DNA of 64,000 nucleotides from an uncultured Pseudomonadales bacterium (lineage in GTDB: Bacteria; Patescibacteriota; Microgenomatia; UBA1400; PJMF01). A program made the translations under genes and the position numbers. Below, piece by piece: positions 8,767 through 52,173 of this stretch (positions are counted from its first letter, which is position 1; the number at the start of each line of letters is the position of its first letter). The stretch covers positions 57,718 through 121,717 of the forward strand of contig CAYOQI010000004.1 of NCBI GenBank assembly GCA_964406075.1. The letters run 5' to 3'. The notes under the pieces are model-generated. The model ran no database searches and had not been told where the DNA came from. It worked only from the letters and a program-made list of their open reading frames with translations.

Positions 8767-8778
8767 ATTAACTTGATT

Positions 8779-8807
8779 ATTATAGGATACTTTTCCCGTT
8801 TTGTCCA
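8779..8807 (-). promoter_or_regulatory. Candidate promoter for the sortase gene (minus strand): TGGACA, 17-nt spacer, TATAAT.
   Basis: On the minus strand, TGGACA is the complement of 8802-8807 and TATAAT the complement of 8779-8784, with a 17-nt spacer. The ATG at 8766 is 12 nt downstream of the -10 box. Confidence 0.4.
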
Positions 8808-8867
8808 GATACAACACATATAAATAGCCTTGACTTTTTTATAAAGAGCAATGAGAATGATGTCTAT

Positions 8868-12564: not shown

Positions 12565-12576
12565 TTGATTTTAAAT

Positions 12577-21834: not shown

Positions 21835-22746
21835 TTACTTTTCTCGAGAAGGTTTGACTTCATACCCTCTTCCATCACTGATAATTTCAATGTGTCCATG
21901 TTGGCTTGTTGTGTATATTTTGATATTTCTATATCGAAGTATATCAATTACTCGAGTGTGAGGATGCCCAAAACTATTGTTTTTGCCCACTCCCATCAAT
22001 GCAGTTTCGGGTCTGGATGCCATGATGAATTCCTCATGTGTTGAGTTTTTAGAGCCGTGGTGGGATACTTTTATTACATCGATGTCCTTTATCACATGCT
22101 CTCTTGTTAGTGATAACTCAATCTCACTACTGATGTCACCAGCAGACAGCATCCTGAACTCCCCATATCCCACATAGCCAGATACAGAAAGGTCATTATC
22201 ATTTTTTTTACCTTTGTTTTTTACCATTCGATTTGGGTCTTGTTCTTGTTCGGTCTTTTTAAAAACAGAAATATCTTCTACCTCTGGCCAGATACTTAGA
22301 AAAGTCACGTCCGTTTCTCCATTTTCAATGGTTATTTTCTTTCCTTGAGTAAGTGTATGAGTCTCTATCTGGTATTTTTTTATTATTTCTTCAATTGCTT
22401 TACTGAGTTCTGTGGGCTCCCATGGTGGATTGCGAAAAATAACACCAACTTTATATGAAGTAACTATCGATTTAATCCCCGCAGCATGATCTGCATCATC
22501 ATGCGTTAATACTATTACTTCAATATTCCTGTCCCAAAATGGCATGAATTCCCCAAGACAGTCCAATACAGCGTCACTTGGTCCGGTATCAATCAATAGT
22601 TGATGAAAATGCAGATTGATAAGTATCGCATCTCCTTGGCCGACATCACACATGACCACATGAAGTTTATCATCAGGCCACTTCCACCAAATTAAAAAAA
22701 ACAGAAGTATTAATCCAATCAATAGTACATACAGAGCCTTTTTCAT
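21835..22746 (-). CDS. ComEC-type metallo-beta-lactamase fold domain protein, encoded separately with its own N-terminal TM anchor.
   Basis: HVVMCDVGQGDAILIN, LLIDTGPSD, VIVLTHDDADHAAG and VSHHGSKNS match the MBL domain that normally forms the C-terminus of ComEC. The N-terminus carries the TM helix LYVLLIGLILLFFLIWW. The start overlaps the ComEC stop (ATGA). Confidence 0.8.
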   Translation of the reverse strand: MKKALYVLLIGLILLFFLIWWKWPDDKLHVVMCDVGQGDAILINLHFHQLLIDTGPSDAVLDCLGEFMPFWDRNIEVIVLTHDDADHAAGIKSIVTSYKVGVIFRNPPWEPTELSKAIEEIIKKYQIETHTLTQGKKITIENGETDVTFLSIWPEVEDISVFKKTEQEQDPNRMVKNKGKKNDNDLSVSGYVGYGEFRMLSAGDISSEIELSLTREHVIKDIDVIKVSHHGSKNSTHEEFIMASRPETALMGVGKNNSFGHPHTRVIDILRYRNIKIYTTSQHGHIEIISDGRGYEVKPSREK

Positions 22747-34902: not shown

Positions 34903-35838
<936 letters not shown>

Positions 35839-36771
35839 TTATTAAGAATTTTCTCAATAAATGTCCAACCTTTGAACGATGTGTCTAAGTTTAAAATTTA
35901 AGAAATCATTAATTATTTCATTCACATTTTAAACTTTCTCAATGCAAATATTTTTAATATCACAAGGATTTTAAAATCAGCCTTTCTGTTATCATCCGTC
36001 ATTTTTTTGAATCACTTTTACGATGATCCTATATCATTCAGTGCTCAATGAGACGATAACAATTCTTATTGATTCCAATTTAGGCTTCAAATAACTACGA
36101 CTGAGTCCAACACTCTTCTTTTTTAATTTTCTCAAACAGAAAAGGAAATGAGTTTAAAATTACTTCATTTATATTTTTATATAAAAACAAAATTCTTTTT
36201 GAAAACAAGTTGATTGATTTTCATATATTCAAAAAATAATGATTGAGTTTGGTTTAGCAACTTCATCATTTGCTTCCACTCTTAGGTGATTTCTTTATCA
36301 CATAACACAAACGCATGCGTTAATAAACTATATTTGCATTGATAAATATTTTTTCTATCTTAGATTATATTTTTAACGATTACTGTTCTTGCGATATTAA
36401 TTGTTGCGTCTTCGGCTGAAATAATCTTGTGCTATTTTCAAAGAGTCTTCATTCCGCATTCATCACATAAACACCCACTGAAAGATTTTAACGATTTTAA
36501 AAAGACTTTGTATCAATTGATCAAGCAACTTGAGCGAAAATAATTTACAGAATCAAATGAGAGAAAATATTACCAGCAGGCTAAATATGTGAATAAAAAT
36601 GTGTTCGTTGTGAACTTTTATTTGTATTTTATTCGGTAATAATTAAACATGATTATTACGAAACACAGTACACCTCTTGACACCATCAGGTAAAAAATGC
36701 CTTAATGAAGTTGGACAAAAAATGTGACAATTGCTCTTAAAATGTCCCACATTTCGTAAGAACGTAAAAAA

Positions 36772-39700
36772 ATGATTCCCAGTGATCTGCCCCCACTAGT
36801 CTCCATTCATGAAGCTGCAAAGTTTCTTAAAGTTTCGACAAAAACTTTACGTCGTTGGGAAGATCGACACATTTTGTTACCAGCTCGAACTTCTGGCGGA
36901 CACCGAAGATATGATCTCAACGAGATCAAGGCCTTCAAAAAACAAAAGTATTCCAGTGGCTCAGTCGTTCATCAAACAGTACTCCCACTTGCAACAGTTA
37001 AACCACTTGAATCAAAAGTGGTTGACCAAACAGATATTCTTCAAGTTTCCAAACCACTCATCATCAAACCCATTGATCATTTTCCGTTAAAAACACCGAA
37101 AGTAACTGCATACAAGCCATTCCCAGAGACAATTACGAAAGTAAAAAAAACATTTGAGTTTCCTTCATTCCAAGTTAGAAACAACATTCCTCCTCAGGTC
37201 GAAATTCCCACAGAGAAAATAACGGATTTCCCTATTCCAACCACTCCACCTTCTTGGGTGTCTGTCTCAATCGTGTTGGCTTTTTTCTTTATTTCAGCTG
37301 CAGCATTCAGTATTCAAGGTTTCTTCAAGCCTCTAGTTGCAAAACATCCAGTCCTAAGTGAAATTGCGTATTCCCTCGAAAAGAGATTGGCAATAAATGT
37401 TTTTCCTAAAAAAGAAGTGATGATTGTTCAGGCTAACGATAGCAAAGTCTTGGGAGAACACTCCAGCTTAGATTTTTTAAAATTTAATATTAATGTCGAG
37501 TCTTCTTTTCGCGAGTTTGCGAACTTCCTCTCAGATGTCAATGTCGAAGGAAATGCCACGGTCAGTGGAATTTTAAGTGTGAACTCCGGCTCACTTCAAA
37601 CAACTTCTGAAACAGCTCAAGTTTTTGAAAACGCTTCTACTCTCTCAATTGCTGCGAACACTGGCACCACAACAGTGAACAACTCACTAAACGTGGGTGG
37701 AAATTTAACAGTAATTGGTTTGATAAATGATATTGCCGGTACTCTCAATCTTTCCGGTAATACTTTGACTTCAACTGGTGATCTAGTTATTGATCCTGGC
37801 GGAGGTGGTGTTTCGATTGGAGATGCCACTCCAGGAATTATAGATATGACAGATGGAGATTTTTTTGTTTCAGGCGATGTAGAAATTGACGGCATTTTAT
37901 ACGCACCAACTGCAAATATATCAGGCACTGCGAGTATCGGCACTGTCTTGGTGAATTCCGACAGTATCAATGACTTTACTGGAACAGGCTTGACTGTCTC
38001 TGATGGAGCTCTTCAAACCACAATTGGCACATCGGTTTCTTCCTCTGAAATTGAGAATGACACAATTTTGGAAGAAGATCTTAAAGTCTCAAATGATGCG
38101 GTAAATGGTTATGCTCTTACCTATGATAATTCGACCGGCGGATTCACTTGGACAGATATTGCATCCAGTCAAGTTTGGATCGATGGTGGCTCAGTCTACT
38201 ATCAAGCCACGACCACCGATGATGTGGTGATTGGAGGTACTTCCAGCTTGGGTAAACTCTCGGTCGATGGGGATAGTGATGAAATCCAACTCGTAGTTCA
38301 AGGCAATGGGACGCAAACATCAAACATCTTCGTAGTTGAAGACTCCAGTGGGACAGATCTTTTTGTGGTGAACAATACTGGAAGCATCACCATTGCGTCT
38401 GGCCAAGATCTCACCATTGGGTCGATTGGATTGAATGATGTCGGAACAGATAATGTCACTTCTGGAGCATCACTTATCGGAGTGTTTGATGAATTCACTA
38501 ACTCCTCAGCTACGACACTACAAGATGTCCTCGATGATTTTGACGCTGCTATTGGTGGTGGAGCTTCAAAGTGGGCTCAAGATACTGGCTTTGTTTACCT
38601 AGCAAGTACGACTGACGACATCGTTGTCGGTGGTGACACAATAGCTAATGGTTCTTTGTATTTTGATGAATCTGCGGGAAGTCTGTATCTCGGAACTAAT
38701 GAGGCTTTGAACGGCTCACTTACTCTCTACTCTTCAGGAGCAGGGATAACTGACCCTACGATTACCGCAGATGCTACAGGAAATGCGAATATCACTACCT
38801 CTGCCACAGCCTTAGTAAATATATTAGCGGGTAATTTGAAAGTGGGTAATGGCGCGCCCACTCAGACCTTAAATGGTGAAGATGCCTATGTCGAAGGCAC
38901 GCTTGAAGTTGATGGGATACTCTACGCTGGTTCTGCCACTACAGCCTTAACCGTAGCAAGCGGACTGATCGATGCTGATGCAATTGCTTTAACTCCAACC
39001 ACTGAGGGATTAAGTGGTATCTCATCAGGCTCAGGTTTAGCGGTATACAGCGACACACTTTCTCTTCTCCAAGGTTGTGGTGATGGTCAAGTTTTGAAGT
39101 GGAACGAAACAAATGATTCATGGGAATGTGCAAATGATACCGGCGCTTCTTTTGCCGTGGTAAACATTGAGAACAATGATGTTGCAGTCGGGAGCAATGT
39201 CGATTCCATTGATTTCTCTACTGATTTCTTAGTCACTGCTTCCCCATCAAACGAAGCCAATGTTGCAATCGCCGATGACATTTTAAACTTCACAGAATTC
39301 TCTGATGCCCTTACCTTAGATGCCGCTACCACCATCACCAATTCTTTAGCCGGCAACTTGACAATCGACCTCACTTCAACCGGTGATTTCGTCATTGCAG
39401 ATGGTGGAGTTGCCTTCTTTACCTTTACTGATGGTGGTGCTTTAACTCAGGCTGGAAGCGGTCAAATAACCTTGACTGGAAACGTTGATGCTACAAATGG
39501 TCTTGATATAACAGGCGCTTCCCTAACGGTTGGTGGTGCAAATGCCACGATCACCACAGGTGGAGCGTTAACATTGGCATCAACAATTACAGCAGCGACC
39601 GACGAGACCATTAACGGCGTTGATATCAATGCCGGTACCGTTTCAGATGTTGTGAATTTAACTATTAATTCAGGTGGTGACTTAACCATTGGTTCAATCG

Positions 39701-42700
39701 GTTTGAATGATGTGGGTTCAGACAACATCACTTCCGGTGCTTCCTTAGTGGGAGTGTTTGATGAATTCACCAATTCAAGTGCAACAACTGTTCAAGACGT
39801 CTTAGATGATCTCGATGCAGCAATTGGTGCTGGTGCAAGTAAATGGACTGACTCTGGTACTGTTACCTACCTTACTGACACGACTGACAGTATTACGATT
39901 GGGAGTTCAACCGAACTTGGTAAACTTGCAGTCGATGGAGATGCTGATGAAGTTCAGTTATTAGTTCAAGGTAATGGAACCCAGACCAATGCCCTTGCAA
40001 TTTTTGAAGATTCAACAGGTGCTGACCAATTTAGCATTAGTAATACTGGAAACGTGACGTTAGCTGGAGATTTAACAATCAGTGGTGGAAATATTACCTC
40101 TGCAACTACCTTTGATTCCACCGCAACCGTAACAGGAACATTAACAGCAAATGGCACTTTAGATGCCAATGGGATCTTCACACTTGGTGACAATGGCGAA
40201 ACCGGTGCAATTGATACTTCTGATTGGGATATTTCTGCCACCGGTGTACTCACTGGAGTGAGTGGTATTACCACTGATGGTGGATACACTCAATCAGGCG
40301 CGACCGGAAATACATTTTCAGGCAATGTCGATGCAACTTCTGGCCTTGATGTCACAGGTGCTTCTCTGACTGTCGGTGGTGCAAATGCCACGATCACTAC
40401 AGGTGGAGCGTTAACTTTAGCCTCCACAATTACAGCCAACACAGATGAAACAGTGAACGGAGTTGATATTAATGCAGGGACTGTTTCTGATGTGGTGAAT
40501 TTAACAATCAATTCTGGTGGTGACTTAACTATCGGGTCAATCGGACTCAACGATATTGGTTCAGACAACATCACTTCCGGTGCTTCTTTAGTTGGAGTCT
40601 TCGATGAGTTTACTAATTCAGATGGTCTTAATGTACAAGATGTCCTTGATGACTTTGATGCTGCTATTGGTGCAGGTTCTAGTAAATGGACAGACTCTGG
40701 TACTGTTACCTACTTAACTTCTACTACTGATGACTTAGCCGTGGGAGGATCCACTGTCCTGGCTTCCATGTTTGGCATTGATGAATCGGCAGGAAATTTC
40801 TACTTTGGCTATGACAACTCAGTTTCCCCTACCTTCAACTTTGAAGCCTCTGATGGTGATGCTGGTGAATTTGGATTTAATACCAATGACACATTCTTCT
40901 TCTCCAATGCACGAGTGGGTGTCGGAACGACCAATCCTTCAAGGTTATTACATGTAAGTGATTCTTCAGGGTCGCCCGCCATTAGAGTTACTGGTTCAGC
41001 CAGTGGTTCACCGTTTATTGAGTTCGAACAGTCAGGAAATGTTAGAGGTGTTTTTGGTTATGATAATACAACTTCGACCTTGCAACTTGCATATGGAGCG
41101 AATTTTAGTACTACCTTCCTATCACTAAATAGTTCTGGTTCTATGGGTCTTGGAACCTCTGCACCTGACGCCGCATTAGAAATCAATCATGCTACGGGTG
41201 ATAGTTTACGACTTACATACAATGACTCAAATGGTTCCGCTACCAGCTACACAGACTTCTCTCTCGCCTCTGATGGAGATTTAACAATTGATAGTGCTGG
41301 TGGTGCCATAAACCTTGGTGCAAATGATGACCTCAATATCACTGCTTCTACTGACTTAATCTTTGGAGGATCAACCTCTCTTGGTGAATCTACAGGAGCG
41401 GCTGATTCAGGAGCTTTCTTAACTGGTATTTTTGATGAATTTGATAACTCTGCTTCCTCTACAGTACAAGATGTGATTGATGATATTGATGCAGCTATTG
41501 GAAATAGAACATACACTGCTGATAACTACGTGACTGATGGTCAAACTCTGACAGCTTCCATCAATGCCCTTGATATTGCACTTGCCTCTGTTTCAGGCGG
41601 TGCGTACACAGGATGGAGTATTGACGTGGATGATGACGGAGCTGATCCAATTGCAAGTGGAGCTACGCTGAATGTTGATGCTGGAAGTAATGTGTCATTG
41701 ACCTACACAGCTGGTACCAATACGCTTTTAATTGCTGCTACTGATACAAATACTACCTACACAGCTGGGAATGATCTTGATCTTACCGGAACGGTCTTCA
41801 GCCTAGAAACCACCCTCGATTTTGTCGACACAATTAATTTAGCTGGGACAGGAACTCTCAACGGTCTTGATGCCGTTGATGCTACTGGAGAAAATACTAT
41901 TGAGGCCCTGATCTTTGATACAGATGCTGAAAGTATTACCGGAGTCTGGACGGTAGCTGACTCGACCAACTTCAGAATTGGTACCGGTGGTGACTTAACC
42001 TTCGCTCATGATGGTTCAAACTCTACTATTACTAGTACGACGGGTGACTTACTTATCGACAATACAAATGCCACCGGTTCAACCATTTTTGACCTGGGCA
42101 CAGATACTTCAGCCACTGATTTCCTTATTAGGAATGATTCTGGCACTCAACTCTTAAGCTTGAACGGTGCCGGGGCACTTCAGCTTGGAAGCAATGGTCA
42201 AGATGGTCAGTTCATCCTCTACAACGAACTAGGTGTAACAGATTACACAAACACAATTAACCCAAGTGGTTCTCAGTCCCAAAACATCACCTATACCCTA
42301 CCTCCTGATGATGGTGGCGCTGATAATTACGTTCTCACCACGGATGGAAATGGCGTATTGCAATGGGAATCCGTCACTGGTGCCGGTGGAGGAAGTGGAG
42401 ATCTGACAGATATCATTGCTGGGAACTACATTGATGTTCAAAACGCTGGTGGTCCGAGTCCTACTGTAGACTTTGATCCAACCGAACTTGAAGGAGTGAC
42501 TTGGGGTGCCTCATCTGGCGCCAGTGAACCTTTTACCTGGACGTATGATGTGACGAACTCCGGAACTGATCCTTCCATCACTTTCGCGGACAATGCCATC
42601 ACTCTCACAGCAGCAACTCTTACAGCTAGTGGTGATTTAACAATTCAAGGTGGAGACGCAACGCTTGGAATGGCTGGAACCGATGGTTCGCTCACTTTTT

Positions 42701-45700
42701 ACAATGAACTCGGAGCCACAGATAGAAGTGTTATCTTTAACGTCTCGGGATCGCAGTCAGAAGATATTGTCTACACTCTTCCTCCTGATAATGGAGCTGC
42801 TGACAACTATGTTCTTACCACTGATGGGTCAGGTGTGTTGCAGTGGGAATCAGTTTCCGGAGCTGGTGGCGGAACAGGTGATGTTACCGATATCGTTGCT
42901 GGCAACTACATTGATGTTCAAAATGCTGGTGGCCCAAGCCCAACCGTGGACTTTGATCCAACTGAACTTGAAAGTGTGACCTGGGGAGCACAAACTGGTG
43001 CTTCATTTACCTGGACGTTTAATGCTTCATCTGGCACTGATACCAGTATCGCCTTTGCGGATGGCAGTATCTCCCCCACACTCGCTGCAACTGGACTATT
43101 CAATGTCTTAACTGGAAATTTGAAGGTCGGAAATGGAACACCTGGACTTTCGCTCGATGGTGAAGATGCATATATTGAAGGCACTTTTGAAGTGGACGGC
43201 GCATCTCAATTTGATGGTGCTTTGACAACTAATGGAACGTTAACCGCAAACGGCCAGTTCACACTCGGAGATAATGGTGATACTGGGGCTATTAATACCT
43301 CAGATTGGGATATTTCTACTACTGGTAGTCTCACAGGAATTTCTGGAATTGCGAATGACGGAAGCTATACCCAAACCGGATCAAGTGCAAATGCATTTAC
43401 AGGTGTAACAACATTTAACACTGATGTTGATTTCACCTTCGCTGATACTGAAAATATTGCCATTACTAATACCGTAACAGGCACAAACGGTCTCGATCTT
43501 ATTTCTGCTATTATCACAAATCAAACTTCCTCTGGAACTCAAAGAGGTATTGTTATTTCTAATGCGAACGATGCTGCCAACGCCTCAACTGAGTCATTAA
43601 TCTTCTTAGACAATGCCGAAACTACCGCTTCTACCCTTACAGACGCAATACTCATTACTTCATCTGGTGCTGATGGTGGCATTGTCGATGCCATTGATGT
43701 TTCAGCTGGCAACATCACCAATGCGCTCAATGTCGGTGGGAATAATATCATCGGAACAACAGCAGTCATAAACTTTGATAACTTTGACATTGATGGTTCA
43801 GGAAACCTCGTAACTGCTGGAACATTAACAGCTGCCACGAATGAAACAATTAATGGGGTTGATATCAATGCTGGAACTGTTTCAGATGTGGTGAATTTAA
43901 CAATCAATTCTGGTGGTGACTTAACTATTGGTTCAATCGGTCTCAATGATGTCGGATCAGACAACATCACCTCTGGGGCTTCCCTAGTTGGCATGTTTGA
44001 TGAGTTTGATAACTCTGCGTCCACCACAGTTCAAGATGTTATTGATGACATTGATGCAGCTATCGGGAATCGAACCTACACTGCTGATAACTATGTGACT
44101 GACGGTCAGAGTTTAACCGCTTCGATTGATGCCCTTGATGTTGCTCTTGCTGCTGTCTCCGGTGGTGCGTACACGGGCTGGGATTTAGATGGTGATTCCG
44201 GAACCGCCGAAACCATTGCTAATGGCAATACGGTCAATATCCTCGGTGGCACCAATGGAATTGATACCGTCGTAAGTGCGACTGATACTTTAACTATTAA
44301 TTTAGATACTACGGAAATTGGTACAAGCACTTTTGGATCTGGATCAGGTTTTACTTGGACTTTTGACGCCGGTGCTACTGATCCCACACTTGCCTTTGCA
44401 AGTAACGCCATTACTATCGGGGGTGCTGCTACACTCAACTTTGGCGGTACTCTTGACCTCGGAACAAACACTCTCAGTGATGGCAACTTTAATGGTAACT
44501 GGGCATTTAATAGTGGAAATCTCTCCGGGATTGGAACCATCGGTGCTTCTGGTGCGATTACTGCTGCAACCGATGAGACCATTAACGGCGTTGATATTAA
44601 TGCAGGGACTGTTTCTGATGTGGTGAATTTAACAATCAATTCTGGTGGTGACTTAACTATCGGGTCAATCGGACTCAACGATATTGGTTCAGACAACATC
44701 ACTTCCGGTGCTTCTTTAGTTGGAGTCTTCGATGAGTTTACTAATTCAGATGGTCTTAATGTACAAGATGTCCTTGATGACTTTGATGCTGCTATTGGTG
44801 CAGGTTCTAGTAAATGGACAGACTCTGGTACTGTTACCTACTTAACTTCTACTACTGATGACTTAGCCGTGGGAGGATCCACTGTCCTGGCTTCCATGTT
44901 TGGCATTGATGAATCGGCAGGAAATTTCTACTTTGGCTATGACAACTCAGTTTCCCCTACCTTCAACTTTGAAGCCTCTGATGGTGATGCCGGAGAGTTT
45001 GGTTTTAATACCAGTGATTCCTTCTTCTTTAGTAACGCCTTAGTTGGTATTGGAACTGCAAGTCCAAGCGAACAGCTAGAAGTTGGAGGAAATATCGAGC
45101 TAACTGCTGCAGTTCCTCGTCTTGCGTTTGACAATACGAACGGTGATAACGATTGGTATATACAAGCTTCAGCCACTGGCTTTCAGTTTAGAAACTCATC
45201 TGATAACGTCAACTACCTTTTGATCAATCAAACAGGTCTTGTAAGCATTGGTGGAGATGATTCCCCTGATTATCTGCTAGAACTTTATGATGCCACAGCC
45301 ACTCCTACATTTGCCTTATCTGATGATGATGTTACACACGGACTCACAACACTTGCTCAGACAGATGTGTTTTCTCATCTAACATCACTCTCAACCACAG
45401 CCGGAGGTGCAGAACTTACCACAATCAGTGACACAGATGCTCAAGCACTATCGATCCGAGGCGTGATTGGTTCTACTGACCCGACCGATACGACTCCAGC
45501 AGTTAAGCTTGTAGGTGCAAAGAGTAATGGAACAACCGGTATGGCAGATCTTGGTGCAGCAGAAACAGTATTCCAAGTTGCAAACAATGATGACGCTTCA
45601 GCATTAACAATACTTGGGAATGGAAATGTTGGGATCGGTGATACAACGCCAGCTGCACTTCTGACCGTTGGAACATCAGATGCATTACAAATTGATGCTT

Positions 45701-48700
45701 CTGGAAATGTTGTGACGACTGGAACAGTAACTGCAGCTACGAATGAAACAATTAATGGAGTTGATATTTCAGCAGGAACGGTTTCCGATGTGGTGAATTT
45801 AACAATTAACTCAGGTGGTGACTTAACTATTGGTTCAATTGGTTTGAATGATGTTGGAAGTGACAACATCACTTCTGGAGCATCGCTCGTTGGTGTGTTT
45901 GATGAGTTCACCAACTCAAGCGCAACAACAGTTCAAGATGTCTTAGATGATCTCGATGCAGCAATTGGTGCTGGGGCAAGTAAATGGACTGATGGTGGAG
46001 CTATTACCTACTTAACAGCAACAACAGATGACCTCGCTGTCGGTGCTTCCAACACTCTCACTGCTCCTTTCTCTGTCGATGTCTCTGCCAACTTAGTCAG
46101 AATCGGTACTGGTTCAACAGCCAATGCTCAACTTGACATGTATGCTTCAGATGGCGACACAGGAAGTCTTATTTACAATACTTCAGATCAATTTAACTTC
46201 ACCGGTGGTGATGTCTTGATTGGTCAGGCATTAACAGTAACTGGAACAACTACCGCCAATGGTGCCTTTGATGCCAATGGTCAGTTCGATCTTGGAGATG
46301 GTGGCGATGCTGGAACAATTTCTGCAACTACGCTAGACATTGATGCCACAGGTGCTCTTCAAATTAACTCCTCAGGTGGAGCTATTGGGATTGGTAATGA
46401 TGCTGTTGCTCAAGCAATTAACATTGGCACTGGTGCTGCAGCTCGAACCATCACTATGGGAAACAATACCGGTGCTTCAGCGCTCCAACTTACCTCAGGA
46501 ACTGGCGACATTACTTTGACATCAACTGACGATATCTTATTCACTCCTACTGACGATATGCTCGCAACCTTTGCCGCAGGCTCAGCATTTACTATAGATG
46601 CTGCAACCACTGATACGACAGTAACCGGCGGAGTTCTTGCCCTTGATGTCGATGCTGGAAATGCGGCTGTGATTGGAATTGATTTAGATTTTTCTCAATC
46701 AAGTGGAGCAACGACAGGGACAGATGCTATTGGTCAAAACATCGCTGTTTCAGCCAATGATGCAGATGGTGATGTATTTGGACTTTCAATCCGATCAAAT
46801 GCCACAGCCAATGCTGGAGTGGGTTCTTATGAGGCATTAATTCGACTAATTAATGCTGAAGATACCGCCTCGGCTGTAACAGACGCTATTTTAATTGACT
46901 CAACTTCAGGCGTAGACGGTGACATCATTGATGCGATCGATGTTTCTGATGCAAATATCACCAACGCTTTGAATGTTGGCGCCAACAATATTATTGGTAC
47001 TTCAGCTGTTATCAATTTCTCAAGCTTTGATGTAGATGCTTCAGGAAATACGATAATTGGTGGAACACTCGACGTCACTGGAATTTCAACTCTAGTTGGC
47101 AACTTGAACGCAAACGGTGGTCTTGATGTCGATAACGCATTCGTTGTAGCGGATGGTGGAGTGTTAACCACCTCTCAAACTGCTAACTTTGATGGCACAG
47201 CTGACTTTGATGGTGCTGCCGACTTCTCCGCTGGAGTTACAAACTCTGCAGGTGAATTCTTAGTTTCAGGTGGAAACCTCCAGCTCAATGACAATATTAA
47301 TTTGACGGTTGGAACTGGTGATGACTTAACTATCGTTCACAATGGAACCAACACACTTCTCACTTCCGTAACGGGTGACTTAATCTTTGATAATACTTTA
47401 GTAACTGGTTCTACTATCTTTGATCTTGGAACCGATACCTCTGCAACTGACTTCTTAATTCGAAACAATTCTGGAACTCAACTTCTCAGCATGAACGGTG
47501 CTGGTGCATTCCAACTTGGATCAAATGGTCAAGATGGCCAGTTCATTCTCTATAACGAACTGGGTGGAACTGACTACACAAATACAATTAACCCAAGTGG
47601 TTCTCAATCTCAAAATATTACCTATACCCTCCCTCCAGACGACGGCGGACTAAACTACGTTCTTACCTCAGATGGTAGTGGTGTACTCACCTGGCAGTCT
47701 GTCGGTGGAATCGGAGCTGGTGGAGATTTAACTGACATTGTTGCCGGAAACTACATTGATGTCCAAAATGCTACCGGGCCAAGTCCTACAATAGATTTCG
47801 ATCCAACCGAACTCGAAACCGTGACCTGGGGTGCCCAAGCTGGATCTTCCTTTGCTTGGACATTTAACGCGTCAAGTGGCACTGATCCTGTCATGACATT
47901 TGCCGATAATGCCATCACTCTTACAGCTGCTACCACTACTCTCTCTGGAGATCTTGCGATCAATGGTGGAAATGTCACAACCGCGACCACCTTTGACTCA
48001 ACACTGACAGCAACAGGGACACTTACAGCAAATGGAGCCCTTGATGCTAATGGTCAGTTCGATCTTGGAGATGGTGGCGATGCTGGAACAATTTCTGCAA
48101 CTACGCTAGACATTGATGCCACAGGTGCTCTTCAAATTAACTCCTCAGGTGGAGCTATTGGGATTGGTAATGATGCTGTTGCTCAAGCAATTAACATTGG
48201 CACTGGTGCTGCAGCCAGAACAATCACAGTGGGAAACAATACCGGTGCCTCCGCACTCCAACTCACCTCAGGAACCGGAGACATCAACTTGAATTCTGCC
48301 GATGATATTTTCCTGAGTCCAAGTGATGACCTTACGGCCTTCATCACCGCCGTTGGTCAATTTACTATTGATGCGGCAACAATTGATAGTCAGAATACCC
48401 TCGGCGCATTTAGACTTGATATTGATAGCTCTACATCAGGGACTATTGGATTCTTGACCAACTTTAGAGCTATTGATGATGACGCAGCCGACATTCTCTA
48501 CGCCAATCGTACTGATGTCACAATTCAAGATGATACCACTGCTTCTGACACCGTCTATGGAAATTATATTAGTCTCATTCAGAATGACACCACACCAGCA
48601 ACAACATATGGCTTAGCGGTAGTAGCAGAAGATGCTGGTACTTCCCCTGTCTCTACTGGAATCTTAATTGAAAACTTACAAGCAACTGATATTGATCTCA

Positions 48701-51700
48701 CCGATGGTCTGTTGATCAGAGCAACAACAGATGGTTCATTAGTAGATGCTATTGATGCGTCAGATGCAGAAATTACCAATGCCTTAAATATTGGGGCAAA
48801 CACAATCTTAGGAACAACTGGGGTTATCGATTTCACTAACTTTGATGTTGCAGCTACAGGTGCGCTCTCACTCTCTACCGCCGGAAATACCTCAGCCTCC
48901 TTCACCAGAACATCTGCTGGTCAATGGATGGCATTCAACGATGGCACCGATACTTGGGGTATTTACAACACCGCTGGTAGTCCTGAAGCATCGTTGACCG
49001 CAAATACTGGAGCCCTCGCAATGGATACAACCAATGGAACTCTCTATGTCAAAACTGATGATGGCGATAACACAGGGTGGGTAAACCTCGCTTCCGGTGC
49101 TTCTTCACCTTGGACTGATTCAGGGACGACTTCCTACTTAACCGATACTACAGATGAAGTAGTGATTGGTGGAGCTTCCCCACTTTCCAGTGCCAAATTT
49201 TCAATCGATGGAGATGCGGATCAAACTCAACTACTTGTCCAAGGCAATGCAACTCAAACCACAGACCTCGCAATCTTTGAGAACTCAGCGGGAGCAGATC
49301 AATTCAACTTCAGTAATACTGGAAACTTGATTGCAGCTGGAGACATTACTGCCACTGGTGGAACATTCAACGGTGCATCTGGAGAAAGTATTGACCTCGG
49401 AGTCGCAAGCTCAGATGTCCTCACCTTCACGACTGGAGCCTCAACTGAACTACTCCTTTCCACAACTAACTTAACAGCTGGAACAGCTGAAGGAAACTCA
49501 CTTGGATCTGCAACAGTAGAATGGGAACAACTCTTCCTTGGTGATAACAATGGAATTTCCTTTGGTCTCGATCAAGATTGGTCATTTGGTTATGATGAAG
49601 CTACAGATGATCGACTTGAATTAATCACAGCAGGAACGTCTGGAATGTTAATCCAATCCGCAACGGCTACTGGCAACGGATTAGCACTTACTTTTGATTC
49701 ACTCTCAACCGGTGAAGGACTCTACTTGTCTTCTACTTCAACAGCATTAACATCAGGTGGACATCTTGGTCTCTTCGAGTGGAATCCTGGAAGTGCCAGT
49801 TCGACCACCGCAGATCTGTTTAGTATCAATATTGGAAGTAACGCCACTGTGCTGGGAGATATCTTTAATGTTCAAGATAACGGCTCTGATCTTTTCTCCG
49901 TTGGAGAAGCTCAAATTACCTCTGCTCTTCCCCACTCATTTACCGCAGCCGGCGATGTATCAGTGGCCTACGATCTCCAATTTACCAATCAAACTGCTAG
50001 TTATTTGAAAACATACGGCCCACTTCAGATCGAAGCTGGTGAATCGTTTGAATCAAATAACTTAACGATAAAAACATATAACTCAGGTGACGTCGTCATT
50101 GATCTACCAGCCACCGGCCAAATGATCGTACAAGGTGCGTTCTCAATTGGAGATCAGCAAACACTTCCTGCCGGAACCACACCTTCCGTAGCCGGTGGTT
50201 CACACTACATTGGAAACGCGAATGGATTGATCACCAACTTCACCAGTGGAACTGCAGGTCAGATCCTAGTACTTGAGTTCGATGGAACTTCGACTGACCT
50301 CGACTGTAGCACTGCCGGACCGATTCGTTGTGGAAGTACAGATATCACTACCCAACAAGCAGCCGGTGACATCATTACCTTCATTTATGACGGAACAAAC
50401 TGGAACATGATCGAGTATGTAGCACTGGACGCAGACTCTACAGCTGGAGCTGACCTTGCCGAGTACTACCCCGCTTCTGAACACTTAGAGCCAGGTGACA
50501 TCGTCAGTATTGATTCAACTCAGCCAGTGATGGTGGAAAAATCTCACGAGTCTCATCGTCAACGAATAATGGGTATCGTATCAAGTGATCCAGGATTATT
50601 ACTTGGTGAAGAAGCGGATAATTCTTACCCCATCGCCTTGGCAGGGCGTGTGCATGTAAAAATGTCAGAATCATCTGAAGCTATTCAACCCGGCGACTTA
50701 GTTGGAGTTTCTCAGGAAACCGGAAAAGCCAAAAAAGTAAACTCTGGATATACAGTTGGCCGTGCTCTTGAATCATGGGATCCAAACTCTGGCGATCGAG
50801 ATGTGGTGGTATTTGTGAACTTATCATATATTCCCGTAGATTTAGCTTTAAATAATGATGGTCAAGTCAGCTCAAGCTACTCACTTATTACGACGGATTC
50901 TCTTGAGTACGCGATTCGCGATCTGAACAATGGACAGGATATTCAACAAACCTTAGTCTTGGCCGAATCATTGATTGGACGACTGGAAACCGGAAGTATA
51001 GTTACTCGAGAATTACAAGCTCAAAGTATCGAAACTGAAGACTTCCTCACGAATAACGCCACAGTATCTGGACAACTCAATGCCAACTCTGCAGAAATTA
51101 ACTCATTGAGATTTGAAACCGCCACAGTGGCGGGTCAACTTTTCTTATCAGATGGACGAAGTGTCGGCTCATTACTGGATGAAAATGATGCCTACTTAGC
51201 TTCCCTCTCAGCTCAGACCCAACAACTCGCACAATCATTTAGTGAGCAAACTGTCCCAGGCACATCCACAGCCTTTGATGAATTCCTCGCTCAACTGACA
51301 GGTACAGAAGACGCTTCTCTCTCAGCTGCCTTAGCAGCAATTCAGAATCAAGAAGATATTGAACTCGATGCAGAAAGCATGGTCCTGGCACCAGACGCAG
51401 TCTTTGTCAAAGAATACTTGAATGTCACCGGCTTCACTCAATTAACTACGGCCAGCATTTCTCAATCACTTACTGTGGGAGATGGTTTACTCTTAACTCA
51501 AGATACGATCGCCACAGCAGAGGAAACACTCTATATCCAACCAACTGCCGGATCACTGAACTTACTCGCCGGTTTGATGACACTCACTCCAGATGGAAAC
51601 GTCACGATTAACGGTGATCTGACTGTTACTGGAATCGCTTCCATTACTGATGGAGTGAAAACTAGTCAGCTCTCTCCAAATGACTTTACGCAAGATTTGA

Positions 51701-52173
51701 CAGTCAAACTTGCATCAGAATCAGCCTCAGTCTTGGGCACAACTGATAGCTCAGAGTTCCAGATTTTGAACGCCAGTAACTCAGCAGTGGCCAGTATCGA
51801 TGCATCTGGATCCGCCAAGTTCTCTAGCATTTCAACTGAAGGCTTAGTCTTGAAACAACCTCAGTCAGAGGCATCATCCTCTGCTCAACGACAAGCTGAA
51901 ATTGCTCGCAAACAAACAGCGGGACAATTAACTCTTGAGGCTGGTGAAGTCACAATGGAAATTGAGAATGATAATGTTGAAGACGACAGCTTGATTTATC
52001 TCACTGCAACTTCAGATACTCAAAACCAAGTCATGTATGTTGGAGAGAAAGAAACCTGTGCATTTGCTGGCCCAACCTGTCAAACCAGCTTCACCGTAAA
52101 AATTAATCAACCGATTGCTACAGACATTAAGTTCAACTTCTGGATTGTAAATGTCTCAAAACAACAGCCGTAA
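36772..52173 (+). CDS. Giant (5133 aa) membrane-tethered surface protein: an N-terminal MerR/excisionase-type HTH, a single TM helix, a very long Thr/Gly/Asp/Ser/Asn-rich repetitive extracellular region, and a distinct C-terminal domain.
   Basis: The 15.4-kb frame runs uninterrupted. HTH: IHEAAKFLKVSTKTLRRWEDRHILLPARTSGGHRRYDLNEIKAF. TM: WVSVSIVLAFFFISAAAFSIQGFF. The module ...TINGVDINAGTVSDVVNLTINSGGDLTIGSIGLNDVGSDNITSGASLVGVFDEFTNS..VQDVLDD.DAAIG recurs at least 6 times. The module LQLGSNGQDGQFILYNELG.TDYTNTINPSGSQSQNITYTLPPDDGG..NYVLT.DG.GVLQWESV recurs 3 times. Confidence 0.85.
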   Translation: MIPSDLPPLVSIHEAAKFLKVSTKTLRRWEDRHILLPARTSGGHRRYDLNEIKAFKKQKYSSGSVVHQTVLPLATVKPLESKVVDQTDILQVSKPLIIKPIDHFPLKTPKVTAYKPFPETITKVKKTFEFPSFQVRNNIPPQVEIPTEKITDFPIPTTPPSWVSVSIVLAFFFISAAAFSIQGFFKPLVAKHPVLSEIAYSLEKRLAINVFPKKEVMIVQANDSKVLGEHSSLDFLKFNINVESSFREFANFLSDVNVEGNATVSGILSVNSGSLQTTSETAQVFENASTLSIAANTGTTTVNNSLNVGGNLTVIGLINDIAGTLNLSGNTLTSTGDLVIDPGGGGVSIGDATPGIIDMTDGDFFVSGDVEIDGILYAPTANISGTASIGTVLVNSDSINDFTGTGLTVSDGALQTTIGTSVSSSEIENDTILEEDLKVSNDAVNGYALTYDNSTGGFTWTDIASSQVWIDGGSVYYQATTTDDVVIGGTSSLGKLSVDGDSDEIQLVVQGNGTQTSNIFVVEDSSGTDLFVVNNTGSITIASGQDLTIGSIGLNDVGTDNVTSGASLIGVFDEFTNSSATTLQDVLDDFDAAIGGGASKWAQDTGFVYLASTTDDIVVGGDTIANGSLYFDESAGSLYLGTNEALNGSLTLYSSGAGITDPTITADATGNANITTSATALVNILAGNLKVGNGAPTQTLNGEDAYVEGTLEVDGILYAGSATTALTVASGLIDADAIALTPTTEGLSGISSGSGLAVYSDTLSLLQGCGDGQVLKWNETNDSWECANDTGASFAVVNIENNDVAVGSNVDSIDFSTDFLVTASPSNEANVAIADDILNFTEFSDALTLDAATTITNSLAGNLTIDLTSTGDFVIADGGVAFFTFTDGGALTQAGSGQITLTGNVDATNGLDITGASLTVGGANATITTGGALTLASTITAATDETINGVDINAGTVSDVVNLTINSGGDLTIGSIGLNDVGSDNITSGASLVGVFDEFTNSSATTVQDVLDDLDAAIGAGASKWTDSGTVTYLTDTTDSITIGSSTELGKLAVDGDADEVQLLVQGNGTQTNALAIFEDSTGADQFSISNTGNVTLAGDLTISGGNITSATTFDSTATVTGTLTANGTLDANGIFTLGDNGETGAIDTSDWDISATGVLTGVSGITTDGGYTQSGATGNTFSGNVDATSGLDVTGASLTVGGANATITTGGALTLASTITANTDETVNGVDINAGTVSDVVNLTINSGGDLTIGSIGLNDIGSDNITSGASLVGVFDEFTNSDGLNVQDVLDDFDAAIGAGSSKWTDSGTVTYLTSTTDDLAVGGSTVLASMFGIDESAGNFYFGYDNSVSPTFNFEASDGDAGEFGFNTNDTFFFSNARVGVGTTNPSRLLHVSDSSGSPAIRVTGSASGSPFIEFEQSGNVRGVFGYDNTTSTLQLAYGANFSTTFLSLNSSGSMGLGTSAPDAALEINHATGDSLRLTYNDSNGSATSYTDFSLASDGDLTIDSAGGAINLGANDDLNITASTDLIFGGSTSLGESTGAADSGAFLTGIFDEFDNSASSTVQDVIDDIDAAIGNRTYTADNYVTDGQTLTASINALDIALASVSGGAYTGWSIDVDDDGADPIASGATLNVDAGSNVSLTYTAGTNTLLIAATDTNTTYTAGNDLDLTGTVFSLETTLDFVDTINLAGTGTLNGLDAVDATGENTIEALIFDTDAESITGVWTVADSTNFRIGTGGDLTFAHDGSNSTITSTTGDLLIDNTNATGSTIFDLGTDTSATDFLIRNDSGTQLLSLNGAGALQLGSNGQDGQFILYNELGVTDYTNTINPSGSQSQNITYTLPPDDGGADNYVLTTDGNGVLQWESVTGAGGGSGDLTDIIAGNYIDVQNAGGPSPTVDFDPTELEGVTWGASSGASEPFTWTYDVTNSGTDPSITFADNAITLTAATLTASGDLTIQGGDATLGMAGTDGSLTFYNELGATDRSVIFNVSGSQSEDIVYTLPPDNGAADNYVLTTDGSGVLQWESVSGAGGGTGDVTDIVAGNYIDVQNAGGPSPTVDFDPTELESVTWGAQTGASFTWTFNASSGTDTSIAFADGSISPTLAATGLFNVLTGNLKVGNGTPGLSLDGEDAYIEGTFEVDGASQFDGALTTNGTLTANGQFTLGDNGDTGAINTSDWDISTTGSLTGISGIANDGSYTQTGSSANAFTGVTTFNTDVDFTFADTENIAITNTVTGTNGLDLISAIITNQTSSGTQRGIVISNANDAANASTESLIFLDNAETTASTLTDAILITSSGADGGIVDAIDVSAGNITNALNVGGNNIIGTTAVINFDNFDIDGSGNLVTAGTLTAATNETINGVDINAGTVSDVVNLTINSGGDLTIGSIGLNDVGSDNITSGASLVGMFDEFDNSASTTVQDVIDDIDAAIGNRTYTADNYVTDGQSLTASIDALDVALAAVSGGAYTGWDLDGDSGTAETIANGNTVNILGGTNGIDTVVSATDTLTINLDTTEIGTSTFGSGSGFTWTFDAGATDPTLAFASNAITIGGAATLNFGGTLDLGTNTLSDGNFNGNWAFNSGNLSGIGTIGASGAITAATDETINGVDINAGTVSDVVNLTINSGGDLTIGSIGLNDIGSDNITSGASLVGVFDEFTNSDGLNVQDVLDDFDAAIGAGSSKWTDSGTVTYLTSTTDDLAVGGSTVLASMFGIDESAGNFYFGYDNSVSPTFNFEASDGDAGEFGFNTSDSFFFSNALVGIGTASPSEQLEVGGNIELTAAVPRLAFDNTNGDNDWYIQASATGFQFRNSSDNVNYLLINQTGLVSIGGDDSPDYLLELYDATATPTFALSDDDVTHGLTTLAQTDVFSHLTSLSTTAGGAELTTISDTDAQALSIRGVIGSTDPTDTTPAVKLVGAKSNGTTGMADLGAAETVFQVANNDDASALTILGNGNVGIGDTTPAALLTVGTSDALQIDASGNVVTTGTVTAATNETINGVDISAGTVSDVVNLTINSGGDLTIGSIGLNDVGSDNITSGASLVGVFDEFTNSSATTVQDVLDDLDAAIGAGASKWTDGGAITYLTATTDDLAVGASNTLTAPFSVDVSANLVRIGTGSTANAQLDMYASDGDTGSLIYNTSDQFNFTGGDVLIGQALTVTGTTTANGAFDANGQFDLGDGGDAGTISATTLDIDATGALQINSSGGAIGIGNDAVAQAINIGTGAAARTITMGNNTGASALQLTSGTGDITLTSTDDILFTPTDDMLATFAAGSAFTIDAATTDTTVTGGVLALDVDAGNAAVIGIDLDFSQSSGATTGTDAIGQNIAVSANDADGDVFGLSIRSNATANAGVGSYEALIRLINAEDTASAVTDAILIDSTSGVDGDIIDAIDVSDANITNALNVGANNIIGTSAVINFSSFDVDASGNTIIGGTLDVTGISTLVGNLNANGGLDVDNAFVVADGGVLTTSQTANFDGTADFDGAADFSAGVTNSAGEFLVSGGNLQLNDNINLTVGTGDDLTIVHNGTNTLLTSVTGDLIFDNTLVTGSTIFDLGTDTSATDFLIRNNSGTQLLSMNGAGAFQLGSNGQDGQFILYNELGGTDYTNTINPSGSQSQNITYTLPPDDGGLNYVLTSDGSGVLTWQSVGGIGAGGDLTDIVAGNYIDVQNATGPSPTIDFDPTELETVTWGAQAGSSFAWTFNASSGTDPVMTFADNAITLTAATTTLSGDLAINGGNVTTATTFDSTLTATGTLTANGALDANGQFDLGDGGDAGTISATTLDIDATGALQINSSGGAIGIGNDAVAQAINIGTGAAARTITVGNNTGASALQLTSGTGDINLNSADDIFLSPSDDLTAFITAVGQFTIDAATIDSQNTLGAFRLDIDSSTSGTIGFLTNFRAIDDDAADILYANRTDVTIQDDTTASDTVYGNYISLIQNDTTPATTYGLAVVAEDAGTSPVSTGILIENLQATDIDLTDGLLIRATTDGSLVDAIDASDAEITNALNIGANTILGTTGVIDFTNFDVAATGALSLSTAGNTSASFTRTSAGQWMAFNDGTDTWGIYNTAGSPEASLTANTGALAMDTTNGTLYVKTDDGDNTGWVNLASGASSPWTDSGTTSYLTDTTDEVVIGGASPLSSAKFSIDGDADQTQLLVQGNATQTTDLAIFENSAGADQFNFSNTGNLIAAGDITATGGTFNGASGESIDLGVASSDVLTFTTGASTELLLSTTNLTAGTAEGNSLGSATVEWEQLFLGDNNGISFGLDQDWSFGYDEATDDRLELITAGTSGMLIQSATATGNGLALTFDSLSTGEGLYLSSTSTALTSGGHLGLFEWNPGSASSTTADLFSINIGSNATVLGDIFNVQDNGSDLFSVGEAQITSALPHSFTAAGDVSVAYDLQFTNQTASYLKTYGPLQIEAGESFESNNLTIKTYNSGDVVIDLPATGQMIVQGAFSIGDQQTLPAGTTPSVAGGSHYIGNANGLITNFTSGTAGQILVLEFDGTSTDLDCSTAGPIRCGSTDITTQQAAGDIITFIYDGTNWNMIEYVALDADSTAGADLAEYYPASEHLEPGDIVSIDSTQPVMVEKSHESHRQRIMGIVSSDPGLLLGEEADNSYPIALAGRVHVKMSESSEAIQPGDLVGVSQETGKAKKVNSGYTVGRALESWDPNSGDRDVVVFVNLSYIPVDLALNNDGQVSSSYSLITTDSLEYAIRDLNNGQDIQQTLVLAESLIGRLETGSIVTRELQAQSIETEDFLTNNATVSGQLNANSAEINSLRFETATVAGQLFLSDGRSVGSLLDENDAYLASLSAQTQQLAQSFSEQTVPGTSTAFDEFLAQLTGTEDASLSAALAAIQNQEDIELDAESMVLAPDAVFVKEYLNVTGFTQLTTASISQSLTVGDGLLLTQDTIATAEETLYIQPTAGSLNLLAGLMTLTPDGNVTINGDLTVTGIASITDGVKTSQLSPNDFTQDLTVKLASESASVLGTTDSSEFQILNASNSAVASIDASGSAKFSSISTEGLVLKQPQSEASSSAQRQAEIARKQTAGQLTLEAGEVTMEIENDNVEDDSLIYLTATSDTQNQVMYVGEKETCAFAGPTCQTSFTVKINQPIATDIKFNFWIVNVSKQQP
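40462..40862 (+). repeat. 401-bp exact intragenic direct repeat, copy 1 (identical to 44590-44990).
   Basis: Nucleotide identity over the whole span, read directly. Both copies lie inside the giant CDS. Confidence 0.8.
44590..44990 (+). repeat. 401-bp exact intragenic direct repeat, copy 2.
   Basis: Identical to 40462-40862, at an offset of 4128 nt. Confidence 0.8.
46276..46442 (+). repeat. 167-bp exact intragenic direct repeat, copy 1 (identical to 48049-48215).
   Basis: Read directly. It encodes ...NGQFDLGDGGDAGTISATTLDIDATGALQINSSGGAIGIGNDAVAQAINIGTGAA in both copies. Confidence 0.8.
48049..48215 (+). repeat. 167-bp exact intragenic direct repeat, copy 2.
   Basis: Identical to 46276-46442, at an offset of 1773 nt. 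Confidence 0.8.

Follow-up and report, generated by a model that had tools for sequence, protein, structure and literature searches.

A giant phage-fibre-like mosaic protein of the Patescibacteria with a predicted helix-turn-helix anchor, and recombination between its repeat modules

Anatomy of the giant protein and its repeat modules

The DNA analysed here, referred to below as the window, is a stretch of 64,000 nucleotides from contig CAYOQI010000004.1 (GenBank assembly GCA_964406075.1, forward-strand positions 57,718 to 121,717) of an uncultured bacterium that the GTDB lineage places in the Patescibacteriota. A single open reading frame (ORF) spans positions 36772..52173 on the + strand and encodes a protein of 5,133 amino acids (aa), identical to the database protein P0176. 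The first-pass annotation of this DNA had placed a giant surface protein from position 37330 onwards; as this position is codon 187, the first residue past the predicted transmembrane helix, that range covers the ectodomain and not the whole gene. The N-terminus of the protein carries a MerR/excisionase-type helix-turn-helix (HTH), predicted to be cytoplasmic, at 36799..36948 (+; aa 10-59), with the motif VSTKTLRRWE..G.L.P.RT.GGHRRY and with scores above the Pfam cut-offs for MerR (PF00376, 37.4 bits against 28.2), PF13411 (34.9 against 21.6) and HTH_17 (31.0 against 27.0). A basic linker of ~100 aa joins the HTH to a single predicted transmembrane helix at 37246..37326 (+; aa ~159-185, SWVSVSIVLAFFFISAAAFSIQGFF), which is the top hydropathy window of the protein (peak of 2.37 at aa 163); the N-terminal 158 aa hold 25 Lys and Arg (K+R) against 15 Asp and Glu (D+E). 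This arrangement predicts a cytoplasmic HTH, an N-terminal membrane anchor and a 4,950-aa ectodomain outside the cell. Its three close cysteine pairs (769/786, 4512/4520 and 5096/5103) agree with an extracytoplasmic location. A full regulator of the MerR family was considered and rejected: PF13411 covers profile positions 2-47 of 69 only, and a linker, a transmembrane helix and the ectodomain are found instead of an effector-binding domain. The protein also shows a weak NCBIfam similarity to RacA (E 0.052).

The ectodomain comprises ~4,950 aa, of which the shaft makes up ~4,000. Thr (14.4%), Gly (13.1%), Ala (10.6%), Asp (10.2%), Ser (9.5%) and Asn (7.5%) together account for 65% of its residues, which bears out the Thr/Ser/Gly/Asn/Asp-rich composition reported in the first-pass annotation. 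The same annotation had noted few charged residues, which holds for basic residues (K+R 1.0%) but not for acidic ones (D+E 12.5%): the shaft is strongly acidic. Searches against Pfam, NCBIfam and PHROG returned no match for the ectodomain or shaft, the latter two databases giving nothing past the HTH, and no match was found when the shaft modules were searched by sequence against the PDB. A fold search with a model of the shaft returned tail-fibre names at TM-scores of <= 0.2 with a high root-mean-square deviation and was not used as evidence. A sortase-anchored LPXTG wall protein was also rejected, as the sole LPATG (aa 4445-4449; 50104-50118) lies 690 aa from the end, is followed by no hydrophobic/basic tail and is absent from the family consensus. 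The window does hold a sortase gene, at 8041-8817 on the - strand; the LPATG motif of the fibre is probably a chance occurrence.

The ectodomain is built from several repeat families, as first proposed. Using hidden Markov models (HMMs) of the window's own modules, the order along the protein is H k A k A k A k g A' C B B A C A k g A k B k T I, in which H is the HTH, T an invariant core and I an autochaperone. Motif searches and HMMs agreed on the three families that had been recognised previously. Module A ('VQDVLDD.DAAIG'), for which at least six copies had been claimed, is present in six good copies and a degenerate seventh. The good copies start at aa 546, 970, 1251, 2383, 2627 and 3017 and lie on the + strand, as do all modules, at 38314..38574, 39598..39846, 40441..40689, 43837..44085, 44569..44817 and 45739..45987 (A1 to A6); the degenerate copy (A', 41275..41520) ends in VQDVIDDIDAAIG at aa 1565-1577. 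Module B ('YTLPPDDGG..NYVLT.DG.GVLQWESV') indeed occurs three times, at aa 1803, 1963 and 3580 (42154..42516, 42637..42996 and 47485..47841), the second copy standing in tandem with the first at a 480-nt spacing, and module C ('LTASI.ALD.ALA.VSGGAYTGW') twice, at aa 1577 after A' (41500..41691) and at aa 2432 after A4 (44065..44256). Two further types were delineated by HMMs of their own. Module k, of the SKW..TYLT..VGG type, has seven copies, the first at 38161..38421 and the others at 38557-38823, 39829-40095, 40672-40947, 44800-45078, 45970-46245 and 49096-49359. Module g, of the VGIGT..P..L.V knob type, has two: g1 (40894..41613), a piece of which (aa 1437-1518) is 50-80% (mostly 58-71%) identical to many proteins of unrelated length, and g2 (45022..45741), orthologous at 92% to aa 1930-2179 of P0177, the closest homologue of the protein. 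Tandem Repeats Finder detected no short-period arrays in the gene, the repeats being long dispersed modules.

Excluding the pair A3/A5, copies 2-6 of module A are 80-98% identical in protein and 74-84% in DNA, with proportions of synonymous differences (pS) of 0.53-0.71 and of nonsynonymous differences (pN) of 0.03-0.14 among copies 2-6. The A3/A5 pair stands apart, with 99% protein and 98% DNA identity. These data show that the module copies are old paralogues held nearly constant in protein by strong purifying selection.

Exact tracts and recombination between modules

Two pairs of nucleotide-identical segments had been reported within the gene, and both were recovered by an exact repeat search. 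Tract 1 is a 401-bp segment found at 40462..40862 (+; aa 1231-1364), where it includes most of A3, and again 4,128 nt (1,376 codons) downstream at 44590..44990 (+; aa 2607-2740), where it includes most of A5. Tract 2 is a 167-bp segment found at 46276..46442 (+; aa 3169-3224; D1) and 1,773 nt (591 codons) downstream at 48049..48215 (+; aa 3760-3815; D2). Neither pair contains a mismatch, and both are maximal: adding a single base at either end breaks the identity. After these two, the longest exact repeat within the gene measures 44 bp. Given the mismatch density of the homologous spans, the chance of such exact runs is P <= 1e-32 for the 401-bp tract and <= 3e-17 for the 167-bp tract. Outside the gene, the only exact repeat of at least 20 nt in the window is a 27-bp sequence at 17338/17388, 50 nt apart, in the gap before a Wzy_C-like gene.

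The codon alignment shows that homologous sequence flanks each tract on both sides and in the same register, with many identical residues encoded by different codons. Within the tracts pS is 0.01-0.02, owing to one boundary codon, against 0.62-0.94 in the adjacent flanks, where differences occur every 3-6 nt, mostly at third codon positions, and comprise all substitution types. The boundary of tract 1 is a mosaic one: in a sliding comparison, A3 is nearest to A2 upstream of the tract (nucleotide identity of 0.73-0.93) and unrelated to A5 (~0.3), and from 40462 onward it is identical to A5 (1.00). Other pairs of copies also share shorter, nearly identical patches (A2/A6, 0.98; A2/A3, 0.93), which point to recombination at earlier times. 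Because the homologous flanks are saturated at synonymous sites and the boundaries are mosaic, the tracts are attributed to homologous recombination between old paralogues, and the two events are shown to be recent enough that no substitution has accumulated. The first-pass annotation had spoken of very recent duplications and of ongoing intragenic recombination or gene conversion; recent intragenic homologous recombination is borne out by the mosaic boundaries and the saturated flanks, but the term duplication is not, as the tracts overwrite or recombine older paralogues. These recent events homogenise the copies rather than diversify them.

The closest homologue, P0177 (4,167 aa, encoded at locus L003), was used as an outgroup. 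Tract 2 and both flanks of D2 match P0177 at 80-96% aa identity, against 41% for the flank of D1, and the two paralogues D1 and D2 are 52% identical. Because both D2 flanks have orthologues in P0177, D2 is taken as the native copy and likely donor, and D1 as the likely recipient of the 167-bp patch that overwrote it, which amounts to a clean gene conversion. For tract 1, P0177 holds a single L-A-k-g unit, and this unit corresponds to the left flank of copy 1 (92-97%), the tract (87-93%) and the right flank of copy 2 (88-98%), which is the arrangement expected from a crossover between the tract-1 repeats. Tract 1 is a conversion or a crossover joining two A-k-g units. Both spacings are divisible by 3, so that a crossover between the copies of a tract yields in-frame length variants; as identical direct repeats, the tracts would now allow 1,376 and 591 codons to be deleted or duplicated without loss of the reading frame.

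The comparison with P0177 also separates the shaft from the two ends of the protein. The shaft blocks are 85-100% identical to those of L003, with a nonsynonymous divergence (dN) of 0.03-0.10 and a synonymous divergence (dS) of 0.9-2.8, against a dN of 0.59 (44% aa identity) for the N-terminal 410 aa and a dN of 0.83 (32% aa identity) for the C-terminal 690 aa. Similarity falls from ~90% to ~35% at ~aa 4440, right after the T core. As dN is low in the shaft and high at the ends, the repeats are best viewed as a constrained structural shaft, with variation located at the two ends. The rapid antigenic variation suggested in the first-pass annotation does not agree with this pattern: the modules are under strong purifying selection, both between copies (pN of 0.03-0.14 at pS of 0.5-0.8) and in the comparison with L003.

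Homology searches run with three sub-regions of the protein return nothing longer than ~1.7 times the query; the giant homologues were therefore recovered solely by an exhaustive profile search and by contig scans. The module A profile matched 332 proteins among 1.84 billion representatives, many of them of 3,000-8,000 aa and with up to 38 copies per protein, and a scan of species-representative genomes gave 145 related stretches, many with ORFs above 4,000 aa. Where their titles are informative, these stretches belong to Patescibacteria (Woese-, Ames-, Gottesman-, Roizman-, Chisholm- and Levyibacteria, and WWE3), apart from a few that bear other labels. Many loci (L001-L005, L009, L012, L017 and others) come from third-party annotation (TPA) assemblies titled 'uncultured Gammaproteobacteria' or 'uncultured Pseudomonadales' but have the Patescibacteria-type gene cluster that is also found in loci titled Woesebacteria or Microgenomates; these titles look like mislabels. 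An exact 50-mer of tract 1 found no match in metagenome contigs, a protein-based metagenome scan returned distant relatives and no close one, and two neighbouring proteins, looked up by exact identity, led to no contig.

The relatives reuse the modules in other numbers and orders, such as HkAkAkBBAkgABkT in P0177 and HkAkBAkBkBTI in P0187, or 19 A and 9 C in P0175 and 35 A and 26 C in P0174; in the window protein and its nearest relatives, k or C usually comes after A. The N-terminal succession of HTH, linker and transmembrane helix was found in 11 of the 15 homologous ORFs examined, with the HTH tandemly doubled in two (loci listed with an HTH: L008, L009, L012, L016, L017, L019-L021, L041, L052, L056 and L064), and some relatives have an integrase SAM-like DNA-binding domain in its place. 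In-frame exact repeats of 449, 381, 272, 203 and 181 bp were detected in homologues from independent assemblies, most of them with similar but diverged adjacent flanks and one homologue contains a tandem duplication of more than 2 kb with a 2,067-nt spacing (loci concerned: L048:1-4261, L004:1745/2984, L062:677/3860, L006:2156/5690, L009:9974/11390 and L052:6608/7505). These results show that homologous recombination between modules is recurrent.

The C-terminal unit and the weighing of explanations

After the shaft comes the T core (49759..50121, +; aa 4330-4450), the most conserved part of the whole family and nearly invariant throughout it. Its motif reads LPHSFTAAGDVS..YDLQFTNQTAS..GESFESNNL, also written LPHSFTAAGDVS.AYDLQFTNQTAS...GESFESNNL, with P, F, G, D, Y, D, N, T, P, G, E and E as near-invariant residues. 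It matched no known family and was modelled with no more than moderate confidence; its role may be that of a hinge for recombination, of an active site or of a site of assembly. The T core is followed by a beta-sandwich (50146..50436, +; aa ~4459-4555) modelled by AlphaFold2 with a predicted local distance difference test score (pLDDT) of 85-92. It is weakly similar to Phage_depo_C (PF25692, E 0.0096, below the cut-off), and its fold matches are tailspike and K1-lyase C-terminal domains, although the model of the C-terminal region matches solved tailspike and decoration domains only weakly.

Next comes a predicted autochaperone beta-barrel of the gp12 type, Peptidase_G2-like, at 50452..50871 (+), which starts at D4561 of 'GA|DLAEYYP', the predicted autocleavage site. 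The family profile matches the structure of the phage phi29 gp12 domain (PDB 3gqh, chain 3gqh_A) with an E value of 1.2e-5, aligned from residue 1 of the cleaved domain, and 20 homologues show no variation at D4561, A4563 or E4564. In BFVD, the fold corresponds to 'Preneck appendage protein' models at TM-scores of 0.61-0.62 with 24-26% identity, among 71 viral fold hits at E <= 1e-3 that comprise tail fibre proteins, collagen-repeat phage proteins and many uncharacterised ones. PF11962 (Peptidase_G2) is hit by 8 of the 20 aligned homologues (best E 4.1e-10). A conserved terminal beta domain (51916..52158, +; aa ~5049-5129; ..FNFWIV..), with an FNWW end in the family consensus, closes the protein (pLDDT ~94); the autochaperone is modelled at a pLDDT of 91-97, and aa 4459-4689 and 5049-5129 are confident overall (85-97). 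Peptidase_S74 was rejected as the chaperone type, as there is no PF13884 hit and no SD...K (SDxxxK) anywhere in the protein, and S74 occurs in 2 of the 20 homologues only. Other C-terminal domains found among homologues are S74, Phage_depo_C, K1-lyase_C, collagen and H-lectin.

The best reading of these data is that the protein is a phage-tail-fibre-like attachment fibre that evolves by module shuffling. The C-terminal domain of phi29 gp12 is a trimerisation chaperone that is removed after folding (PMC3357383). By analogy with phage tailspikes and with the MAT fibres of Bdellovibrio, the chain would trimerise from its C-terminal autochaperone, the autochaperone may then be cut off at Ala4560|Asp4561, and the fibre would extend outwards and attach to a host cell or some other surface. 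The fibre-forming nature proposed in the first-pass annotation gains support from the gp12-type autochaperone. That both exact tracts arose by recent intragenic gene conversion or crossover, and not by fresh duplication, is in our judgement quite probable, a judgement that applies jointly to the anchored giant fibre and to the recombination between its modules.

Several alternatives were weighed against this explanation. An assembly or polishing artefact, in which one copy of each tract was written over a diverged paralogue or the flanks were mis-joined in a metagenome contig, would be favoured by the difficulty of 401-bp exact repeats for short reads and by the origin of the gene from one NCBI contig of 135,179 bp, its protein forming a singleton cluster, with no independent assembly found. 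However, all four junctions to unique flanks are present and in frame; the tract bounds the inter-repeat segment on both sides, which should make the two-copy linear order the sole path that uses every segment once; assemblers would not be expected to merge 400-bp paralogues that are 75% identical; and the similar in-frame exact tracts of other species come from independent assemblies. We consider an artefact improbable. A true recent duplication or insertion, either a piece of ~0.4 kb copied anew or a block of ~3.7 kb inserted with a 401-bp target duplication, is unlikely, even though the single unit of P0177, composed of the copy 1 left flank, the tract and the copy 2 right flank, also fits insertion into an ancestral unit. 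Both tracts have in-register homologous flanks with saturated synonymous divergence, so each site already held a paralogous unit; the segment enclosed by the two tract-1 copies was not recently copied from another part of the gene, the next exact repeat being the 44-bp one; and in the outgroup comparison one tract-2 site corresponds to an orthologous unit that is intact, the other to an old paralogue.

Diversity-generating retroelements (DGRs) that target surface proteins are common in Candidate Phyla Radiation (CPR) genomes, and the gene encodes a large repeat-bearing surface protein, which would be consistent with programmed hypervariation of a surface antigen, by a DGR or by silent-cassette switching as in pilE/pilS, vlsE and MgPa. 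We hold this to be extremely improbable: the mismatches beside the tracts have no adenine bias and fall for the most part on third codon positions, a Pfam scan of 29 ORFs of the window, all but a few smaller ones, detected no reverse transcriptase, the gene shows no similarity to the rest of the window at the DNA or protein level, and the modules are under strong purifying selection. An S-layer protein or a beta-helical adhesin of the FHA/pectate-lyase type, both of which the first-pass annotation had likened the protein to, would agree with the Thr/Ser/Gly/Asn/Asp-rich acidic composition and with the Beta_helix Pfam domains of one distant homologue, P0065. Neither likeness held up: the ectodomain matches nothing in Pfam, NCBIfam or PHROG, whether SLH, S-layer, Beta_helix, haemagglutinin or any other domain, PDB sequences gave no match, the C-terminus is of the tailspike and autochaperone type, and the anchor is an N-terminal transmembrane helix and not a wall-binding module. 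Such a protein is therefore very unlikely here.

Some points also speak against the reading of the protein as an attachment fibre shaped by module recombination. The trimeric geometry of the shaft would follow from analogy, and the AlphaFold model of aa 1195-2110, which spans modules A, k, g, A', C, B and B, is poor (pLDDT 49); attachment and cleavage are likewise putative functions. The link to Peptidase_G2 comes from the family profile (E 1.2e-5), from the 8 of 20 homologues and from the fold match, the window protein itself having no PF11962 match at E <= 0.1, and ~430 aa, consisting of helical segments and the conserved beta domain, follow the autochaperone-like domain, unlike in phi29 gp12. 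The assembly of the tracts comes from one NCBI contig and a singleton protein. For tract 1, P0177 has no power to separate conversion from crossover or insertion, the direction being undecidable from it and the history of the blocks reticulate: the diagonal changes at least 10 times, and many of the changes fall in A modules.

The likeness to phage fibres extends to cell-encoded ones. The MAT fibres of Bdellovibrio bacteriovorus, a bacterium living on other bacteria, are surface-displayed, phage-tail-fibre-like and mosaic or chimeric, many have a C-terminal autoproteolytic chaperone, and their distal ends are variable ('tip swapping') (PMC10769870). The window protein resembles them in its divergent C-terminal 690 aa (32%) set against a conserved shaft (85-100%), and this concentration of divergence at the ends recalls tip exchange in phage tail fibres and in MAT fibres (PMC10769870). 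MAT proteins, however, are of ~1,000 aa and have a signal peptide, a conserved beta-rich N-terminal domain of ~130 aa and, if a chaperone is present, S74 with SDxxxK (PMC10769870), whereas the window protein, compared with them by description only, has a cytoplasmic HTH and one transmembrane helix, no signal peptide, 5,133 aa, no SDxxxK and a gp12/G2-like chaperone. An HTH and a transmembrane helix in place of a signal peptide argue against strict membership of the MAT superfamily. With phi29 gp12 (Peptidase_G2; PDB 3gqh), the window family shares the start of the domain (DFAEYF in gp12, DLAEYY in the family, in which D, A and E are invariant), and, as in tailspikes, a beta-sandwich precedes the autochaperone; unlike in gp12, the domain is not terminal, there is no beta-helix enzyme domain, and the protein is chromosomal and membrane-anchored rather than part of a virion.

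As in the repeat adhesins of staphylococci and streptococci and in RTX adhesins, long in-frame repeats are homogenised by conversion or unequal crossover, and copy number and order vary among relatives. Unlike them, the window gene is a mosaic of at least 5 module types over 12 kb and not a uniform tandem array, and most of its copies are saturated at synonymous sites, the two short tracts alone being recent. ToxR/CadC one-component regulators and the MerR-like chromosome anchor RacA likewise have an N-terminal DNA-binding domain in the cytoplasm, which one transmembrane helix connects to an extracytoplasmic part; in contrast to ToxR/CadC, the window HTH is of the MerR/excisionase type and not an OmpR winged helix, the outer part is a 4,950-aa fibre and not a sensor domain, and DNA binding is putative. 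Giant membrane-targeted proteins of CPR epibionts and predators (Vampirococcus lugosii, Strigamonas) have been proposed to serve in a fibrous surface and in host attachment (PMC8080830, PMC13059738). Concanavalin-A/Laminin-G domains are reported in such giant proteins (PMC8080830, PMC13059738) and likewise occur in the neighbour gene in the window. These reports list PKD, FN3, integrin and DUF11 domains and no HTH-anchored tail-fibre-like family; the window modules have no Pfam model. A limited literature search gave no description, for CPR, of a family of giant fibres that are HTH-anchored or bear an autochaperone. That conversion occurs within genes for repeat proteins is already known, and what is new is the family architecture and its conserved locus.

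The conserved locus and its meaning

Downstream of the fibre gene, after a gap of 274 bp with no terminator-like site, lies a second giant gene (52448..59968, +), which encodes a protein of 2,506 aa that has a hydrophobic anchor at its N-terminus and contains at least 8 Laminin_G_3 domains. A homologue of this Laminin-G gene stands immediately downstream on the same strand in 69 of the 94 related loci that were fetched (for example L003, L005, L010, L016 and L052), and the two giant genes probably work together. After the Laminin-G gene comes a gene for a tetratricopeptide repeat (TPR) protein (60143..62296, +), which 10 related loci also carry (E<1e-30), usually likewise behind the Laminin-G gene. 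On the other side, a divergent gene (34903..35829, -) encodes a membrane protein of 308 aa, conserved upstream and divergent in 11 related loci, which has no Pfam match but shares the autochaperone-like beta domain of the fibre (BLASTP, 26% over 99 aa, E 1e-7). By eye only, the hydrophobic C-terminus of this protein, which lies next to ATP synthase genes, resembles the hairpin of an ATP-synthase c subunit.

Between this gene and the fibre gene is an AT-rich non-coding gap of ~940 bp (35830-36771), where promoter-like sites are not commoner than in shuffled sequences and no Rfam match was found; the GC content of the interval 36001-38000 is 0.36, against 0.39-0.45 elsewhere. Over both giant genes (38001-60000) it is 0.43-0.46, against 0.35-0.41 in the flanking housekeeping genes, which may reflect their Gly/Ala/Thr/Asp-rich coding or a different origin. 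The remainder of the window resembles a CPR chromosome, with a sortase, glycosyltransferases, a VirD4-like ATPase, a pseudopilin, ComEC, aminoacyl-tRNA synthetases and ATP synthase; no prophage was found among the 29 ORFs scanned. Genes for surface or DNA-uptake functions lie at 9304-14076 and 21835-24254 and encode a VirD4/TrwB-like coupling ATPase, a von Willebrand factor A (VWA) protein, a pseudopilin with an N-methylation motif, and ComEC together with a separate metallo-beta-lactamase ORF.

On the basis of these sequence features we define a Patescibacteria family of putative HTH-anchored mosaic fibres by an HTH with a transmembrane helix, modules A, k, g, B and C, the T core, an autochaperone-like unit and a Laminin-G gene downstream, all of which are present in or beside the window protein. 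The protein is thus a member of a widespread, uncharacterised family of giant HTH-anchored, phage-fibre-like mosaic proteins, the genes of which are reshuffled and locally homogenised by recombination. A bolder reading, to which we assign a low probability, is that the gene belongs to a Patescibacteria-wide, undescribed host-contact apparatus composed of the divergent membrane protein, the HTH-anchored fibre, the Laminin-G giant and the TPR protein. A domesticated trimer of the phage-tail-fibre type would then be linked directly to a DNA-binding domain in the cytoplasm, engagement of its tip, or tension there, would be coupled to transcription or to nucleoid anchoring, as in a single-pass receptor of the Notch or ToxR kind, and the T core would be the recombination hinge behind which specificity-determining tips are swapped.

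For genes of this kind, exact intragenic repeats are recombination tracts in old, constrained repeats and do not testify to antigenic hypervariation; where they lie, assembly errors and length variants that keep the frame can be expected. The joining of a MerR-type HTH to a giant ectodomain, of 4,950 aa in the window protein, is seen in 11 of the 15 homologous ORFs examined and can be put to the test. Beyond type IV pili, little is known of the means by which ultra-small Patescibacteria recognise their hosts and keep hold of them. The locus offers a concrete and widespread candidate for host attachment: a phage-fibre-like giant with a defined module grammar, a conserved shaft, fast-evolving ends and a conserved partner with lectin domains.

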